Virus record (IMG/VR): IMGVR_UViG_2537561859_000010
Source: a virus
Lineage: Duplodnaviria > Heunggongvirae > Uroviricota > Caudoviricetes
Reading direction: 5' to 3' (one strand)
DNA length: 7,855 nt
Shown here: positions 1-7,855 of the stretch, in pieces
Numbering within the stretch: the stretch's first letter is position 1
Layout of the letters: each line of letters starts with the position of its first letter
Notes under the pieces: model-generated
Seen by the model: the letters and a program-made list of their open reading frames with translations, nothing else
What the model was told of the DNA's origin: nothing
The model's database searches: none
Program-made: the position numbers and the translations under genes

Positions 1-80
1 AGATCAGTGAAGGTAATTTAAAAACGGTTCTGTGAAAGTGACACGAACCGATCTCCATCGATGTTACTCACCGATCTCCT

Positions 81-587
81 TCACGGTAATACGCAGTCAT
101 CCACAGAAGCCGCGTCAGGCCTGAATCCGATAGTCGTTAAAATGTCGCTATCCTGTGCGGAATAATTAATTTTTTCACCCTTCGCAAGCCAGGACAGGAG
201 GGCTTCACGCAGGGCATCTGTGGCACGCTGTATGGCACAGTTTCGGGCAATGGCCGTCAGCTCACTGTAGCCCATCAGCTCCGGTGCCAGTGCCGCCGCC
301 AGTGCTGTGCCGTGCTGCTGCATAAAATCATTCAGCCGGTCGCGGATGCTGATGTGCTGAACGGCTTCATGCGAACGAATATAACGACCGGCGGCCTGAT
401 TCACCTGCCATTTTCTGACTTCGATAATATTGCGTAATTCGTCCAGGCGGCTGACGTTTCTGCCTTCTCCTGACAGAAGCCGCAGATATTCCTGTTCGGC
501 CGCTGCCAGCTCATTTTTGCGTTGCAGCCATGCTGCTTTGTTATTCTGACAGGTGTCAAAGGCCTGCTGTAAGGCTGTGCTTTCCAT
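81..587 (-). CDS. psu: Psu (polarity suppression / capsid decoration protein, Rho antagonist); ORF ends at an in-frame TGA after 168 codons
   Basis: 168-aa ORF starting MESTALQQAFDTCQNNKAAWLQRK, which I recognise as the P4 Psu N-terminus. It lies last in a same-strand sid-delta-psu array. ATG at 585-587 is preceded by a purine-rich SD-like GAGAAAGAG. The stop TGA (81-83) is followed in frame by 21 sense codons to TAA at 18-20. Confidence 0.8.
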   Translation of the reverse strand: MESTALQQAFDTCQNNKAAWLQRKNELAAAEQEYLRLLSGEGRNVSRLDELRNIIEVRKWQVNQAAGRYIRSHEAVQHISIRDRLNDFMQQHGTALAAALAPELMGYSELTAIARNCAIQRATDALREALLSWLAKGEKINYSAQDSDILTTIGFRPDAASVDDCVLP

Positions 588-660: not shown

Positions 661-1161
661 TCATTCCAGACGCAGCGAATATGATTGTGTTTTTAACCGT
701 ACTGGCGGCAGTTCCTGTTTTTCATGCAGGCGTTCTGCCAGTTCGTCCGGCGTGACCGGGCGGACAATGAAGCGGGTGATGGTCTGAAGCGTTTTAAACA
801 CCAGACCACAGCCCGGATCCGTGCACACATAAAAACGCTCGGTGACTTCCTGAGACAGACGCCGCGATGTTCTTGACAGTGCAAGGCCTTTACATCTCCG
901 ACAACAATATCCGGTAACAAGCATTCTTTTCGGGCGTTTCATACTGCCGGAGGCCGACGTCAGTGAATCGCGGTATCTCTGTTTGCCTGAAATGTATTCC
1001 ATTCCTGAATCTTTACTGTCAGAGAAAAAGCTTTCACTCGCTTCAAATGTCGCAGAGCAATAAATATTCCGGCACTGTGCAATCATTATCTTGGTGCCAT
1101 CGTCCATGAAATGTGCGCGACGGGTGTGAGCAACATGTCCACACGACGGGCAGTAAATCAT
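661..1161 (-). CDS. delta: Delta late-gene transcriptional activator (tandem Ogr-type zinc-finger protein)
   Basis: 166 aa with two Ogr-like halves, each carrying a Cys cluster (CPSCGHVAH...CRNIYCSATF and CCRRCKGLA...CTDPGCGLVF). Size and tandem architecture match P4 Delta. Its ATG (1159-1161) overlaps the sid stop as ATGA. Confidence 0.88.
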   Translation of the reverse strand: MIYCPSCGHVAHTRRAHFMDDGTKIMIAQCRNIYCSATFEASESFFSDSKDSGMEYISGKQRYRDSLTSASGSMKRPKRMLVTGYCCRRCKGLALSRTSRRLSQEVTERFYVCTDPGCGLVFKTLQTITRFIVRPVTPDELAERLHEKQELPPVRLKTQSYSLRLE

Positions 1162-1892
1162 GACAGCAGTCCTCTGGCCTTAAGCTCTGCTCCCTGCTGG
1201 TCTATTTTGTCCTGCCACACCTTGCGCTGTGCCGGTGTGCCTGCCACCTCATAATCCATGTGCGGGAGTGTTGCCGCTGACAGTCCGGTCAGCCGGAGAA
1301 CCGGCTCGCCGGTGAGGCTGATTTGCATCTGTTTAATTTTCTGTTCCAGCGATGATTTCACCTGCTGCATGACAGCTTTATCGGGTGCGACGTAGCCCTG
1401 ATGCCCGGTGGTGTTGGCGAGCGGATTTTCCTGTACCAGGATACTCAGATGCATTGCCCGGACAAGCGCCTCACAGGTTTCATTCAGGGCGTGTTCCAGC
1501 TCATGCTCTGCATACAGACTCAGCAGGTGATGATGTGCCTTCCGGTAGGCGGTGGCCGTGCTGTCACACGCCCCTTTCAGGCGTTCACGTTCGAAATTCA
1601 GCACCACGGCCAGATTGTCATATTCCTGTACCAGCTCCCGGCGTGCCACGCGCTCAATGTGGCGCTGTTTCAGCTCGTCGCTCAGGACACCACCGGCTGC
1701 ACGAAAGGCCGTGCGCCAGTCGTCAGCGTCGTTTCCGTCGGCCTGCGCCAGCGCATTTTTTTCCTGCTCTGCCCGTTCAATGGCCGTGACGGTCTCATCC
1801 ATCAGGCGGGCGTTCTCAAGGTGGGCGGCTCTGGCCTTTTCCAGTTGTGCCAGTGCGGGTTGCAGATATTCAGGGATGGTGTTGTCAGACAT
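1158..1892 (-). CDS. sid: Sid external scaffold / capsid size-determination protein
   Basis: Using the ATG at 1890-1892 (SD GAGGAG 8 nt upstream) gives 244 aa, starting MSDNTIPEYLQ. The protein is alpha-helical, charged and Ala/Glu/Leu-rich. It is first in the late operon, directly downstream of a TGT-N12-ACA site. The ORF-track start at 1958 lacks an SD and would overrun the promoter. Confidence 0.82.
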   Translation of the reverse strand: MSDNTIPEYLQPALAQLEKARAAHLENARLMDETVTAIERAEQEKNALAQADGNDADDWRTAFRAAGGVLSDELKQRHIERVARRELVQEYDNLAVVLNFERERLKGACDSTATAYRKAHHHLLSLYAEHELEHALNETCEALVRAMHLSILVQENPLANTTGHQGYVAPDKAVMQQVKSSLEQKIKQMQISLTGEPVLRLTGLSAATLPHMDYEVAGTPAQRKVWQDKIDQQGAELKARGLLS

Positions 1893-1964
1893 TTTCCGGC
1901 TCCTCGTCACTTCAGGTTGAGAAAATTGTGACGTACACCGGACAACAACACGACGCATTGCAGA

Positions 1965-2061: not shown

Positions 2062-2175
2062 TGTTCACCTCTGTTCACCATAAGAAAAAAGATAAGCAAT
2101 ACAGTAAGTTAAAGGGTGAACAATCGCAGTAATGACTGTTCACCGTCTGTTCACCACTGTTCACCACTGTTCACC
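2062..2175. repeat. Iteron cluster (six direct TGTTCACC octamers plus one inverted copy), consistent with P4 ori1
   Basis: TGTTCACC at 2062-2069, 2072-2079, 2137-2144, 2148-2155, 2158-2165, 2168-2175, and GGTGAACA at 2115-2122. An AT-rich tract follows (2181-2270). The same octamer recurs in the crr repeats downstream of alpha, about 4.8 kb away. Confidence 0.7.
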
Positions 2176-2720: not shown

Positions 2721-3307
2721 TGATGCCTGTTCTGCAAAAACTCCCTTTTTCTGGCTTGCCTTTTTCCGGCATTTGCGGATATAGTTTTTCCGCTGCCGCA
2801 AAATCGGCAGCCGGGCGTGAGAACCCGTGTAACTCGAAGGCGACATATGACGCGCCATGCGTCTTTTTTTGTGTCGCAATCAACGCCACAGAGCGCCAGA
2901 TTATGGTGTGGCGTGTGGTTTGCCGTGCAGGTATGATCCTGTTCGCAATCACATGTTATGCCACTGAGTCAATGGTAGCTCAGGCGGGGCAGCCTCCGGG
3001 CTGGCCGGTATTCTTCGAGGCCGGTATTCTCACCCCCGTCTGGGCTATCGCCATCGAGCGTGAGAACTCCGGCGATAGCAGTTATTTGCTACTCGAAGGA
3101 GGCTGCCTTATGGCTACAACCCTTACCCCCTCACACCCTGAATTTGTCTTTGTGTTTGCCGCTGTCCGTCGCGCAGACCGTCATCCCCGTATCTGCATGC
3201 TTCGCACCGTCGCCGGTGATGAACGCAGTGCCCGCCGTTCCCTTGTCCGTGACTATGTGCTCTCCCTTGCTGCCCGTCTGCCGGTGATGGGGGTGTCCCG
3301 TGCGTAA
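2717..3307 (+). CDS. eta: Eta (long ORF containing kil in frame; translated only from upstream P_LL transcripts)
   Basis: Three consecutive ATGs (2717, 2720, 2723) preceded by GGGGG; the first overlaps the vis stop as ATGA. The frame stays open through the putative P_LE and leader to the kil stop. This matches the published nested eta/kil arrangement in P4. The N-terminal part has odd composition, so real translation is uncertain. Confidence 0.55.
2756..2785 (+). promoter_or_regulatory. Candidate P_LE sigma70 promoter (TTGCCT - 18 bp - TATAGT)
   Basis: -35-like TTGCCT (2756-2761) and -10-like TATAGT (2780-2785). A 7-bp stem-loop (2792-2811) sits at the predicted transcript start. The position is about 320 nt upstream of kil. 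Confidence 0.4.
2978..3045 (+). ncRNA. Candidate CI-like immunity RNA in the P_LE leader (boundaries approximate)
   Basis: A 12-bp stem (2978-2989 pairing with 3034-3045, two G-U pairs) encloses about 44 nt. The enclosed segment carries tandem GGCCGGTATTCT repeats whose CTTCGAG and TTCTCAC cores are complementary to repeated GTGAGAA / CTCGAAG elements upstream (2815-2840) and at the kil SD (3058-3099). Inferred from structure only. Confidence 0.3.
3110..3307 (+). CDS. kil: Kil (65-aa protein, nested in frame at the 3' end of eta)
   Basis: ATG at 3110 with strong SD GAAGGAGG 7 nt upstream. 65 codons, matching the published size of P4 kil, and it shares the eta stop. Confidence 0.7.
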
Positions 3308-3587
3308 TAAAAAAGCCCCTCAGACCGTCTCAGCGCGTCATGACGCCCGTGAACACCTCAGCATTGAGGCTTACCATAAGCTCAACCGCGCCAGCGCCGT
3401 ATCCCAGTTTGTTGGGGGTGATTTGATTCACCGTGAACTCTCCGGCCTGCATCAGCTCTACATTCCGCATATTTTCAGCTACCTGAATGAGGATATTGAT
3501 TTTGTGCTGAATGAGCTGAAAGCCAAAGGCCTGTGCCGTGATTTTCTCGCCCAGCAGAAAGACCGGGGAGACAAGACGCATGTTTGA
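3300..3587 (+). CDS. epsilon: Epsilon-like protein (P4 derepressor of helper prophage), 95 aa from a GTG start
   Basis: The ORF has no internal Met, so it starts at GTG 3300 (G-rich SD-like run upstream), overlapping the kil stop. Its position between kil and orf151 matches the P4 left operon. Product assignment is by position and size. Confidence 0.6.
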
Positions 3588-4035
3588 TTTTCCCCAGCCC
3601 GGTGAGATTTACCGTTCTGCCGGTTTTCCCGATGTGGCCGTGGTCGGCATTCTGGAAGACGGTATTCCGTGGGAAATGCCGTACCGCTGCCCGGATATTG
3701 TCTGGAACCCGTACCGCCGTAAATTCAGTATCCTTGTGCGTATCCTCGCTGACGGACGCACCACAGACATCCCGCTGGGGCGTTTTCTGCGGGAATTTAC
3801 CTGTGACCGTCCTGACCTGTTTAAACGCAGCCCCGTAAACCGGCATGCGGTACTGAAAGAAATGGCCGGAGACCCGGAATTACAGAAATGGCGGGAGAAA
3901 TATCTGGATATTTACCCGCAGGCCCCTGTTCCGGTCAGCCGGGCGGCACCGGTGGCGCGGGAATGGCGGGAAATTCCCCGCACGGAGTCTGACCCGGAAA
4001 TCACCCCGGATAACAGTTACCGCAATTATCTGTAA
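3580..4035 (+). CDS. Orf151-like hypothetical protein (P4 left operon)
   Basis: ATG at 3580 gives exactly 151 aa and overlaps the epsilon stop (ATGTTTGA). GGGGAG lies upstream. The GTG at 3538 offered by the ORF track has no SD. Confidence 0.65.
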   Translation: MFDFPQPGEIYRSAGFPDVAVVGILEDGIPWEMPYRCPDIVWNPYRRKFSILVRILADGRTTDIPLGRFLREFTCDRPDLFKRSPVNRHAVLKEMAGDPELQKWREKYLDIYPQAPVPVSRAAPVAREWREIPRTESDPEITPDNSYRNYL

Positions 4036-4170
4036 TTAGAAAACGACACCCGAAAAATTAAATGTGCGTATTCGCGCAGGGATACGCACGTCTTCAGGAG
4101 ACGCAGATATGCCTTATCAGTTAATGCAACCGGCACGGAATGCAGTCATCTGTTACAGGGAGGAAAACAA

Positions 4171-4491
4171 ATGAAAACACCCTTACCGCCCGTCTTACGC
4201 GCTGCCCTTTACCGTCGCGCTGTCGCCTGTGCCTGGCTGACCGTGTGCGAACGTCAGCACCGCTACCCGCATCTCACCCTTGAGTCACTGGAAGCGGCCA
4301 TCGCCGCTGAGCTGGAAGGCTTTTATCTGCGCCAGCACGGTGAGGAAAAAGGGCGTCAGATAGCCTGTGCCCTGCTGGAAGATTTAATGGAATCCGGCCC
4401 CCTGAAGGCCGCGCCGTCGCTGTCCTTTCTCGGGCTGGTTGTGATGGATGAACTCTGTGCCCGTCACATAAAAGCGCCGGTACTGCACTGA
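4171..4491 (+). CDS. cnr: Cnr-like copy-number regulator (106 aa)
   Basis: 106 aa immediately upstream of alpha, with SD GGGAGG 8 nt before the ATG. Size and position match P4 cnr (orf106). Confidence 0.65.
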
Positions 4492-4505
4492 AGGAGAACA
4501 ACACC

Positions 4506-6839
4506 ATGAAAATGAACGTAACCGCCACCGTCAGCCATGCGCTCGGCCACTGGCCGCGTATCCTCCCGGCGCTGGGGATTCAGGTGCTGAAAAACCGTCA
4601 TCAGCCCTGTCCGGTCTGTGGCGGGAGTGACCGCTTCCGTTTTGATGACAGGGAGGGGCGCGGCACCTGGTACTGCAATCAGTGTGGTGCCGGTGACGGC
4701 CTGAAACTGGTTGAAAAGGTGTTTGGTGTTTCCCCGTCCGACGCGGCCGCAAAGGTGGCTGCCGTGACCGGCTGCCTGCCCCCGGCTGACCCGGCAGTGA
4801 CGGCCGCCGCCGGTGCTGAAACAGAAGCCGCCCGGAAGAACGCCGCCGCACTGGCACAAACCCTGATGGCGAAAACCCGTCCCGGAACCGGTAACGCCTA
4901 CCTGACCCGCAAGGGCTTTCCCGGCCGGGAATGCCGGATGCTGACCGGCACACACAGAGCCGGTGGCGTGAGCTGGCGCGCCGGTGATCTTGTGGTGCCA
5001 CTGTATGACGACAGCGGCGAACTGGTTAACCTTCAGTTAATCAGTGCTGACGGCCGTAAGCGCACCCTGAAAGGCGGACAGGTCAGGGGTACCTGTCACA
5101 CCCTTGAAGGACAGAATCAGGCCGGAAAACGTCTGTGGATAGCGGAGGGATACGCGACCGCACTTACCGTGCATCACCTGACCGGTGAAACGGTGATGGT
5201 GGCGCTTTCTTCCGTGAACCTCCTTTCTCTGGCCAGCCTTGCCCGGCAGAAGCATCCGGCCTGTCAGATTGTCTTTGCTGCTGACCGTGACCTCAGCGGT
5301 GACGGCCAGAAAAAAGCCGCCGCAGCCGCAGATGCGTGTGAAGGTGTTGTTGCCCTGCCGCCGGTCTTCGGTGACTGGAATGATGCCTTCACGCAGTACG
5401 GCGGGGGGGCCACCCGTAAGGCCATTTATGATGCCATCCGGCCACCGGCTGAAAGCCCGTTCGACACCATGAGCGAAGCGGAGTTTTCCGCCATGAGTAC
5501 CAGCGAAAAGGCCATGCGTATCTATGAGCATTACGGCGAGGCGCTCGCGGTCGATGCCAACGGCCAGCTTCTGTCCCGCTATGAAAATGGTGTCTGGAAG
5601 GTGCTGCCGCCACAGGACTTTGCCCGGGATGTGGCCGGGCTGTTTCAGCGTCTGCGCGCGCCGTTCTCCTCCGGGAAGGTGGCCTCCGTGGTGGACACCC
5701 TGAAGCTGATTATTCCGCAGCAGGAAGCCCCCTCCCGCCGCCTGATTGGCTTTCGTAACGGCGTGCTCGACACGCAGAACGGCACGTTCCACCCGCACAG
5801 TCCGTCACACTGGATGCGCACCCTGTGCGATGTGGATTTCACCCCGCCGGTGGACGGTGAAACGCTGGAGACCCACGCCCCCGCGTTCTGGCGCTGGCTT
5901 GACCGTGCCGCCGGTGGCCGTGCGGAAAAACGCGACGTGATTCTGGCCGCACTGTTTATGGTGCTGGCAAACCGCTACGACTGGCAGCTCTTTCTGGAGG
6001 TGACCGGTCCCGGCGGCAGCGGCAAAAGTATCATGGCCGAAATAGCCACCCTGCTGGCCGGTGAGGATAACGCCACGTCGGCCACCATTGAGACGCTGGA
6101 ATCCCCGCGTGAACGTGCCGCGTTAACTGGCTTCTCACTGATACGCCTGCCGGACCAGGAAAAATGGAGCGGCGACGGAGCCGGACTCAAGGCCATCACC
6201 GGCGGCGATGCGGTGTCCGTTGACCCGAAATACCGGGATGCGTACTCCACGCACATCCCGGCGGTGATTCTGGCCGTGAACAATAACCCGATGCGCTTCA
6301 CCGACCGCAGCGGCGGCGTGTCACGCCGGCGGGTGATTATTCACTTCCCGGAACAGATAGCCCCGCAGGAGCGCGACCCGCAGCTTAAGGACAAAATCAC
6401 CCGCGAGCTGGCGGTCATCGTGCGTCACCTGATGCAGAAGTTCAGCGACCCGATGCTCGCCCGGTCACTGCTTCAGTCCCAGCAGAACTCAGACGAGGCA
6501 CTGAACATCAAACGGGATACCGACCCGACGTTTGATTTTATCGGCTATCTGGAAACCCTGCCGCAGACCAGCGGCATGTATATGGGGAACGCCAGTATCA
6601 TCCCGCGTAATTACCGTAAATACCTCTATCACGCCTATCTGGCCTACATGGAGGCAAACGGCTACCGGAATGTACTCAGTCTGAAAATGTTCGGGCTGGG
6701 GCTGCCGGTGATGCTGAAGGAATACGGACTGAATTACGAGAAGCGCCATACCAAACAGGGGATACAGACCAACCTGACGCTGAAAGAGGAAAGCTACGGC
6801 GACTGGCTGCCAAAATGTGACGACCCTGCAACAACCTGA
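4506..6839 (+). CDS. alpha: Alpha primase-helicase replication protein (zinc-binding primase, Toprim, P-loop helicase, C-terminal origin-binding region)
   Basis: 777 aa. N-terminal CPVCGGSDRFRFDDREGRGTWYCNQC zinc motif. Walker A GPGGSGKS at about aa 500. SD AAGGAG 8 nt upstream. Followed by a terminator and by TGTTCACC iteron repeats. Length matches P4 alpha. Confidence 0.93.
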   Translation: MKMNVTATVSHALGHWPRILPALGIQVLKNRHQPCPVCGGSDRFRFDDREGRGTWYCNQCGAGDGLKLVEKVFGVSPSDAAAKVAAVTGCLPPADPAVTAAAGAETEAARKNAAALAQTLMAKTRPGTGNAYLTRKGFPGRECRMLTGTHRAGGVSWRAGDLVVPLYDDSGELVNLQLISADGRKRTLKGGQVRGTCHTLEGQNQAGKRLWIAEGYATALTVHHLTGETVMVALSSVNLLSLASLARQKHPACQIVFAADRDLSGDGQKKAAAAADACEGVVALPPVFGDWNDAFTQYGGGATRKAIYDAIRPPAESPFDTMSEAEFSAMSTSEKAMRIYEHYGEALAVDANGQLLSRYENGVWKVLPPQDFARDVAGLFQRLRAPFSSGKVASVVDTLKLIIPQQEAPSRRLIGFRNGVLDTQNGTFHPHSPSHWMRTLCDVDFTPPVDGETLETHAPAFWRWLDRAAGGRAEKRDVILAALFMVLANRYDWQLFLEVTGPGGSGKSIMAEIATLLAGEDNATSATIETLESPRERAALTGFSLIRLPDQEKWSGDGAGLKAITGGDAVSVDPKYRDAYSTHIPAVILAVNNNPMRFTDRSGGVSRRRVIIHFPEQIAPQERDPQLKDKITRELAVIVRHLMQKFSDPMLARSLLQSQQNSDEALNIKRDTDPTFDFIGYLETLPQTSGMYMGNASIIPRNYRKYLYHAYLAYMEANGYRNVLSLKMFGLGLPVMLKEYGLNYEKRHTKQGIQTNLTLKEESYGDWLPKCDDPATT

Positions 6840-6872: not shown

Positions 6873-6890
6873 ATCCCGACCTCCCCCGAA

Positions 6891-7197
6891 GGTGAACAAT
6901 CCACTGTTCACCCTTCACCGTATATTCACCCGTTATCACACTGAAATTAAAAGAGAAAAATGAAAGGTGAACAGTGTGAACAATCAAATCAAAAAAAACT
7001 TTTTTTCTCCCTGTGCGATTTTCAGTACGGGTGATTTATCACCGGTATGAGTCACACCGGCAGAATGCCGGAGGTGAAGAATCGAATGTTCACCCTTCAC
7101 CCATTATTCACCACCTATCATACTGAAATAAAAGGATAAAAAAGAAAGGTGAACAGTGTGAACAGTTCTTTCGAAAAAAAATTTTTTCCTGTACGAT
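6891..7197. repeat. crr-like cis replication region: two ~120-bp direct repeats with a 182-bp period, each bounded by TGTTCACC / GGTGAACA octamers
   Basis: Unit 1 about 6905-7019 and unit 2 about 7087-7197 align along their length (TGTTCACCCTTCACC...CTGAAAT...GAAAGGTGAACAGTGTGAACA...A-run/T-run...CCTGT). The architecture matches the published description of P4 crr. Confidence 0.75.
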
Positions 7198-7473
7198 ATA
7201 GCATCAATCCAAGTAAAAATGCGCTTTCATTTCACATTAACTTACAGCCATTGGTATACGATTAGGTATACGCACAAAAACTGAATTAAACAAAATCATT
7301 AAAAATCAAAGCAATACAATATCTATTCAAACTCCGCCAGCCCACCAATCATGATTGGACGGTGTAAGGACAACACCAACAAAAACAGGAAGTTAGCAGT
7401 CTCAGCAGGACACCGACCAGACGGTGAGGAGACAAAAAAGGATACGCAAAGGAGCCGCGGCTCCTGGCGACAT

Positions 7474-7507: not shown

Positions 7508-7855
7508 TCAGAACGACCAGTTCACACCAGCCACCGCGTTCCACGGGGATTCCACATCGGCACCGTTGCTATACCCCACCCCGAGATGCCCGCTTAACGT
7601 ACTGCTGAATGAGGCTTTAATACCTGCCTGGTATATTCCACGTCTGCCCGACAAATCATTGACGAAATTACCGTCATTATTCACCTTCACCCGGTTATCA
7701 TCGACAAATTCTTTGCGCACAGCCGCCTTCAGCCACGGCTCAACTTCCATACCGTTCCCCAGACGCATGTTGTAACTCAGCGTTGCACCCAGTTCACGAT
7801 ATATACTGCGGGTATCGACTGATTTCGATTCCATGCCATTGGATAAATGATAGTA
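7508..7855 (-). CDS. 3' end of an outer-membrane beta-barrel protein gene (autotransporter-type translocator C-terminus); 5' part outside the window
   Basis: The frame is open to the window edge (YYHLSNGMESK... upstream of the tracked Met). The C-terminus ...GIKASFSSTLSGHLGVGYSNGADVESPWNAVAGVNWSF shows alternating hydrophobic/polar beta-strand pattern and a terminal aromatic. It does not resemble a tyrosine integrase C-terminus. Confidence 0.5.
   Translation of the reverse strand, partial: YYHLSNGMESKSVDTRSIYRELGATLSYNMRLGNGMEVEPWLKAAVRKEFVDDNRVKVNNDGNFVNDLSGRRGIYQAGIKASFSSTLSGHLGVGYSNGADVESPWNAVAGVNWSF

Follow-up and report, generated by a model that had tools for sequence, protein, structure and literature searches.

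The shortened psu gene in the window, the whole 7,855-nucleotide stretch of satellite prophage DNA analysed here, is best explained, with a probability of about 0.95, by insertional truncation by ISEc12 after codon 164, with predicted loss of the Rho-binding part of Psu. In the proposed course of events, a P4-like satellite prophage with a complete psu of 190 codons would have received ISEc12 (2,581 bp, carrying istA and istB) by transposition, and the insertion after codon 164 would have duplicated the 6-bp target GATGAC. The psu frame would thereby run into the terminal repeat of the IS, gain four foreign codons (CVLP) and halt at a TGA supplied by the IS, with codons 165-190, the psu terminator and cos pushed 2.6 kb downstream. 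The short-read assembly would then have broken at the IS repeat, leaving a window that ends inside the element. The anatomy of the insertion and its exact reversibility in silico were observed directly, as described below. Gene disruption by insertion sequences is a well-known phenomenon.

The psu ORF occupied positions 81-587 on the minus strand, starting with ATG and comprising 168 sense codons (587 to 84) followed by TGA at 81-83, and the encoded protein ended in ...PDAASVDDCVLP (...SVDDCVLP). The next in-frame stop was TAA at 18-20, with the frame open between the two; these coordinates and the frame agreed with the sequence-only reading of the same DNA. That reading had, however, counted 21 sense codons between the stops and a total of 190 codons. 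The intervening bases 21-80 amounted to 60 nt, that is, 20 sense codons encoding the 20-residue peptide RRSVSNIDGDRFVSLSQNRF, and the hypothetical TGA read-through product would have 168 + 1 + 20 = 189 residues. The frame in the window reached 190 codons only when the TAA was counted, whereas in P4 psu the stop comes after 190 sense codons; the length of 190 aa that the sequence-only reading gave for P4 Psu itself was confirmed by the P4 record and the comparison with PDB 3RX6. The near-agreement of the read-through length with 190 is a coincidence. Since the chance of finding 20 open codons after a stop is approximately 0.38 (uniform codons), the open stretch is unremarkable in itself.

The 168-aa product was clearly recognized as a Psu homologue by Pfam PF07455 (262.9 bits against a cut-off of 27.4, E 1.5e-78), the match spanning only profile positions 1-161 of 182, and phmmer aligned it to chain residues 1-165 of PDB 3RX6 with an E of 2e-104. 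Residues 1-164 were the same as in P4 Psu (PDB 3RX6) except for V159A. A megablast search of window 700-1 against phage records showed 98.8% identity to P4 (X51522) over query 1-605 only, corresponding to window 700-96; the nucleotide homology to P4 psu thus ended at window base 96, 13 nt ahead of the TGA. Based on the P4 nucleotide identity, the 3RX6 alignment and the Pfam Psu match, the authentic P4-type psu codons 1-164 were assigned to 96-587 on the minus strand. In comparison with P4 Psu (PDB 3RX6, 8PEU-8PEY; PF07455), the product lacks residues 165-190, including R166, F169 and helix α7, and bears the foreign tail CVLP instead. The full-length relatives examined all ran on as ...VDDSREKFTPAQNMIFSRKSAQLASRQSV, with SREKF...RQSV at the place of CVLP. 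The complete Rho-contacting C-terminus of an approximately 190-aa Psu was therefore absent, all sequence after D164 being IS-derived, and the prediction of a shortened product devoid of its C-terminal tail was borne out by the alignment to P4 Psu, which ended at residue 164. The genes sid (244 aa), delta (Ogr_Delta) and psu were adjacent and co-oriented, psu being the last gene of the late operon, and the order sid-delta-psu followed by the terminator and cos was the same as in P4. Sequence and synteny place the gene in the Psu family, but it lacks the Rho-binding C-terminus, the functional hallmark of that family, and is best termed an IS-disrupted psu.

Positions 1-95 of the window (minus strand) were identified as the istB-proximal terminal 95 nt of ISEc12, a member of the IS21 family, with 100% identity to complete copies; the contig end cuts the IS. 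This segment matched the first 95 nt of the 2,581-bp copies in L004, L002 and L003 perfectly, and in the megablast search with window 700-1 the final 95 nt were also 100% identical in four unrelated 52-54-kb Escherichia phages. The 95-nt match in PhiR12_1, one of these phages, formed the edge of a two-gene transposase unit; this unit proved to be 2,581 bp long, with TG...CA ends and GGCGG as its target duplication. The IS end in the window begins with TGCGTATTACCGTGAAGG and bears repeated GGAGATCGGT motifs. A three-way alignment placed the switch from psu to the IS at ...GTG GAT GAC / TGC GTA TTA CCG TGA, i.e., GATGAC|TGCGTATT. The hexamer GATGAC at 96-101 (minus strand; codons D163-D164), found at both ends of the IS in L004, represents the psu-side copy of the 6-bp target-site duplication. 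The codons CVLP and the TGA that now end the psu frame (81-95, minus strand) were given by frame-0 translation of the IS end (CVLP*), and the 20 sense codons and TAA that would form the extension by read-through (18-80, same strand) lay wholly within the IS terminus and outside psu. When the extension was compared with Psu 165-190, only 2 of 25 positions were identical, and its local BLOSUM62 score of 14 was no better than the shuffle mean of 14.7; the downstream codons had been taken as a continuation of psu, and no such relationship was found. The homology of the extension to the C-terminus of the relatives, which read-through or recoding would need, was likewise absent. In the alignment at codon 169 to P4 psu, which the sequence-only reading had proposed, there was no colinear nonsense codon, the position lying in IS DNA. 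CVLP, the TGA and the 20 supposed read-through codons are accordingly IS DNA, unrelated to the true Psu tail.

Near-identical copies of the element are named "IS21-like element ISEc12 family" istA/istB in RefSeq, and the identity of ISEc12 was judged against such annotated copies, which differed among one another by 0-2 nt in 2,581; the copy in the scaffold KB733179.1 (L004) was 1 nt off them over the same length. Its terminal inverted repeat, TGCGTATTACCGTGAA / TTCATGAAAATACGCA, was 81% complementary over 16 nt, with longer imperfect arms of 53 nt and 5'-TG...CA-3' ends, and the ends were the same in seven further copies. The target duplication was 6 bp (GATGAC) in L004 and 5-7 bp in eight other insertions. 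All the features of ISEc12 as an IS21-family element with an istA DDE transposase and an istB AAA+ helper, namely, the length of 2,581 bp, the TG...CA ends, the imperfect inverted repeats with internal GGAGATC repeats and the 5-7 bp duplications, were matched. The inserted element is an ordinary ISEc12 with nothing unusual.

The exact 168-aa protein was on record from two NCBI assemblies, GCA_000326205.1 and GCA_000352925.1. It was encoded there on the draft contig of the window (ANXR01000050.1), which ends inside ISEc12, and on the 2.5-Mb scaffold KB733179.1, of which 7,852 bp matched the window with 100% identity. The scaffold contained the complete 2,581-bp ISEc12 at L004 10493-13073, including, outside the window, istB (PF01695, IstB_IS21 AAA+ ATPase, 248 aa) at L004 10578-11324 and istA (PF00665, DDE/rve transposase, 513 aa) at L004 11339-12880. 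The IS was flanked by ...CTGTGGATGAC|TGCG on the left and ...ACGCA|GATGACAGCCGT on the right, with GATGAC directly at both ends. In the right flank, GATGACAGCCGTGAAAAATTCACC...CGTCAGTCTGTGTAA, the duplication was followed by psu codons 165-190 and the stop, all intact, the sequence past the second GATGAC reading AGCCGTGAAAAATTC...CAGTCTGTGTAA. Beyond the psu stop lay the psu terminator hairpin and then the P2/P4 cos GGCGAGGCGGGGAAAGCAC at L004 13325. Removal of the IS and one GATGAC in silico restored a 190-aa Psu with V159A as the sole difference from P4 Psu. Because the real codons 165-190 lie 2.6 kb off across the IS, read-through of the TGA would not restore Psu. The psu/IS junction was found in none of 5,426 complete E. 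coli genomes, nor in the species-representative genome collection. Because the two assemblies with this allele may come from one isolate or from sister isolates, they confirm the junction independently only to a limited extent.

ISEc12 had inserted independently six times, with both orientations represented, within a stretch of approximately 115 nt at the psu 3' end and terminator in different E. coli: five times in complete genomes, each with a 2,581-bp copy and its own 5-bp duplication, and once in the lineage of the window, with 6 bp. The copies were located at L003 4685-7265, L006 4685-7265, L007 3923-6503, L008 3867-6447 and L009 3878-6458, in addition to window 1-95. In B1-56 and 4/2-1, ISEc12 was inserted at psu nt 571, inside the stop codon, with the duplications TGTGT and AGTGT, respectively, each giving a 200-aa Psu. 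The insertion in 160-11H1 was in the opposite orientation at psu nt 570 (duplication CTGTG; 194-aa Psu), and that in EC21Z-014, also in the opposite orientation, was at about psu nt 550 (duplication ATCAC), while in F163 the IS lay 43 nt past the psu stop, in the terminator hairpin (duplication CCATG). Three of the insertions thus fell at psu nt 570/571, and the insertions yielded Psu variants of 168, 194 and 200 aa. The insertions in B1-56 and 4/2-1 are independent events at the same nucleotide, because at either end of the IS the duplication shows the polymorphism of its own satellite (TCTGTG versus TCAGTG), the two satellites are distinguished by 21 differences in 1,492 nt, and the cargo past cos differs. 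The 4/2-1 satellite also contained an IS3-family element in sid (L006 1662-2875; annotated as a partial pseudogene), a second IS in one satellite. In a different P4-like element, that of O17_K12a, ISEc12 (L011 approximately 3214-5794, duplication TGATAAC) was located in the crr-like iteron region by the alpha primase. ISEc12 may be generally common in P4-like satellites.

Under uniform insertion, by a rough estimate based on a few thousand ISEc12-end matches in these genomes of approximately 5 Mb and not amounting to a formal test, fewer than 0.1 insertions would be expected in such an interval of approximately 115 nt. The interval (L004 10485-10492 and 13080-13200, restored psu nt 485-615, of which the window holds the first bases only, at approximately 96-103) showed an unremarkable A+T content and contained 7 roughly phased A/T-tracts of at least 4 nt in 130 nt, the maximum for the satellite, reached by 0.4% of windows. 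IstB of IS21 bends target DNA. We tentatively suggest, at somewhat less than even odds, that the segment comprising the psu 3' end, the terminator and the cos-proximal region is a preferred landing site of ISEc12, where IstB perhaps favours bendable DNA with phased A/T-tracts, and that recurrent capture feeds satellite decay or cargo exchange. A target consensus for ISEc12 was considered and rejected: three IRR-side flanks were loosely alike (ttctgtggatgac, ttttgtggctggc and tcagtgtgataac), but the other sites did not fit and the sample was too small. Judged by title and abstract opening, the 15 best-ranked of 23 papers mentioning ISEc12 showed no sign of treating its target preference.

The recurrence also bears on the possibility that the truncation is a selected, functional allele of benefit to the host or the satellite, either in that a Psu no longer poisoning Rho could still dimerise or decorate capsids, or in that the extra length immobilises a satellite that keeps its defence cargo. 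Expression of wild-type Psu is lethal to cells with wild-type Rho (PMC3737525), ISEc12 recurs at the psu 3' end in six contexts, and the SIR2-type cargo and the neighbouring integrase are intact, all of which would suit such an allele. Most of the recurrent insertions, however, keep all 190 Psu residues (the protein gains 10 aa beyond residue 190 in two cases and 4 aa in another, and one insertion is located after the stop), which speaks for a target preference and against selection for loss of Psu, and the 168-aa allele is known from the two assemblies only. Selection is therefore regarded as an improbable explanation. Still more improbable is an assembly artefact in which psu reads were joined chimerically to a repeated IS although psu is whole in the cell. 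A short draft contig ending in a multicopy IS is a typical place for misassembly, but the identical junction lies within the 2.5-Mb scaffold of the second assembly, a complete IS, its perfect 6-bp duplication and the complementary remnant of psu are together what real transposition leaves behind and a random misjoin does not, and five other genomes carry analogous bona fide insertions nearby. Finally, a colinear psu whose codon 169 was changed by a point nonsense mutation or a sequencing error, or programmed or leaky UGA read-through to a near-full-length Psu, as offered by the sequence-only reading on the strength of the further open codons and a total near the 190 of P4 Psu, has practically nothing left in its favour, since the psu homology stops ahead of the TGA, the downstream codons are an ISEc12 terminus identical at unrelated loci and without protein similarity to Psu 165-190, the true codons are intact beyond the IS, and the total is 189, not 190.

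Apart from the ISEc12 insertion, the element conformed to the known organization of P4-like satellites, the core set of int, an alpA-like gene, alpha primase, sid, delta, psu, cos, a C4-type immunity RNA and TGTTCACC iterons being present. Its layout in L004, in the order int, SIR2-type cargo, cos, psu, delta, sid, C4/isrK immunity RNAs, alpha, and ori and crr iterons, was the same as that of P4-like satellites having a psu-int defence hotspot by cos (PMC9122126; NAR 2026, PMC13586616); this psu-int interval next to cos is a known defence hotspot of such satellites (Rousset et al. 2022, PMC9122126). In contrast to the satellites described in those two reports, neither of which mentions transposases or insertion sequences at the hotspot, L004 has an IS between psu codon 164 and cos. 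The sole cargo of the hotspot was an intact SIR2-family gene (452 aa; L004 13531-14889, outside the window), convergent with psu, which matched the PADLOC candidate PDC-S25 (E 2e-84) and, more weakly, ThsA-type SIR2 proteins. On the plus strand of the window, Rfam searches detected the C4 antisense RNA at 2968-3055 (74 bits), isrK at 2792-2869 (71 bits) and the c4-a1b1 target at 2779-2831 (50 bits), and the satellite immunity region (window 2779-3055) looks intact from its sequence. Exact TGTTCACC iterons occurred 12 times, against 0.27 expected, at window 2062-2175 and 6886-7190: seven upstream of sid (ori-like), and five in two direct repeats of approximately 123 nt (6886-7008 and 7068-7190; 81% alike) right after alpha, an arrangement that fits the ori/crr layout of P4. 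The longest ORF of sid, at window 1158-1958 (minus strand), would encode 266 aa from an upstream ATG, while gene callers and P4 use the start giving 244 aa (1158-1892), and the 4-nt overlap (ATGA) of sid and delta was the same as in P4.

P4 itself sits at leuX, whereas the satellite of the window lineage adjoins ssrA. A search of the region from alpha to the autotransporter gene for an att duplication of the ssrA 3' end gave no exact repeat of at least 12 nt. A 23-nt imperfect repeat, CGTATACCTAA[T/A]CGTATACCAAT (22/23), bracketed the satellite at L004 3316-3338 and 16179-16201, 12,863 bp apart, with the former copy at window 7250-7272; the copy on the int side was embedded in a palindromic sequence that lies between int and the ssrA terminator. 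This repeat is a candidate att or integrase-binding site, and the element limits are tentative because it alone brackets the satellite. Directly past the satellite, window 7508-7834 (minus strand) encoded the C-terminal beta-barrel of an AIDA/pertactin-type autotransporter, which in L004 (1-3080) comprised 1,528 aa ending in ...GVNWSF, with a proline-rich repeat of 12-nt period at L004 2040-2146.

The functional consequences of the truncation can be predicted from what is established for P4 Psu. Its C-terminal region 170-190 interacts directly with Rho and cross-links to it, the substitutions R166C/P and F169V render Psu defective in Rho binding, and wild-type Psu is lethal on induction in combination with wild-type Rho (PMC3737525). 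Cryo-EM placed helix α7 (170-186) of Psu above the nucleotide pocket, in the cleft that separates adjacent Rho C-terminal domains (PMC11718236), and anti-termination requires the C-terminal 20 residues of Psu (PMC3821671). The literature thus agrees with the statement of the sequence-only reading that the C-terminal tail is needed for Rho antagonism. Considering that the Rho contacts R166, F169 and helix α7 are gone, the truncated Psu would very probably be unable to suppress polarity, and its Rho-dependent toxicity is expected to be lost. The central dimerisation knot and the coiled-coil are kept; the truncated protein may still dimerise through the former, and may retain residual Rho binding through R43 at the coiled-coil tip, which also touches Rho. 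Its decoration of capsids may be impaired. With psu closing the sid-delta-psu operon, the insertion is not expected to affect downstream genes by polarity. If the 23-nt repeats mark the limits, the IS would lengthen the satellite from approximately 10.3 to approximately 12.9 kb, compared with 11.6 kb for P4, and the added length could make it harder to package in small P4-type capsids.

Annotations should mark this psu as a pseudogene disrupted by an IS, or as a truncated allele, rather than as a recoding candidate or a natural short Psu, and the "190-codon" coincidence should not be passed on. The possible ISEc12 hotspot at the psu/cos boundary is only a mildly interesting by-product; if it is real, IS capture would repeatedly alter the Psu C-terminus, lengthen satellites and provide a substrate for recombination at the border of the defence hotspot. 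The present case adds one more instance of IS-mediated decay of a satellite prophage, in which the P4-like element of the strain is probably unable to antagonise Rho and perhaps poorly packaged, with its integrase and SIR2-type defence cargo kept.
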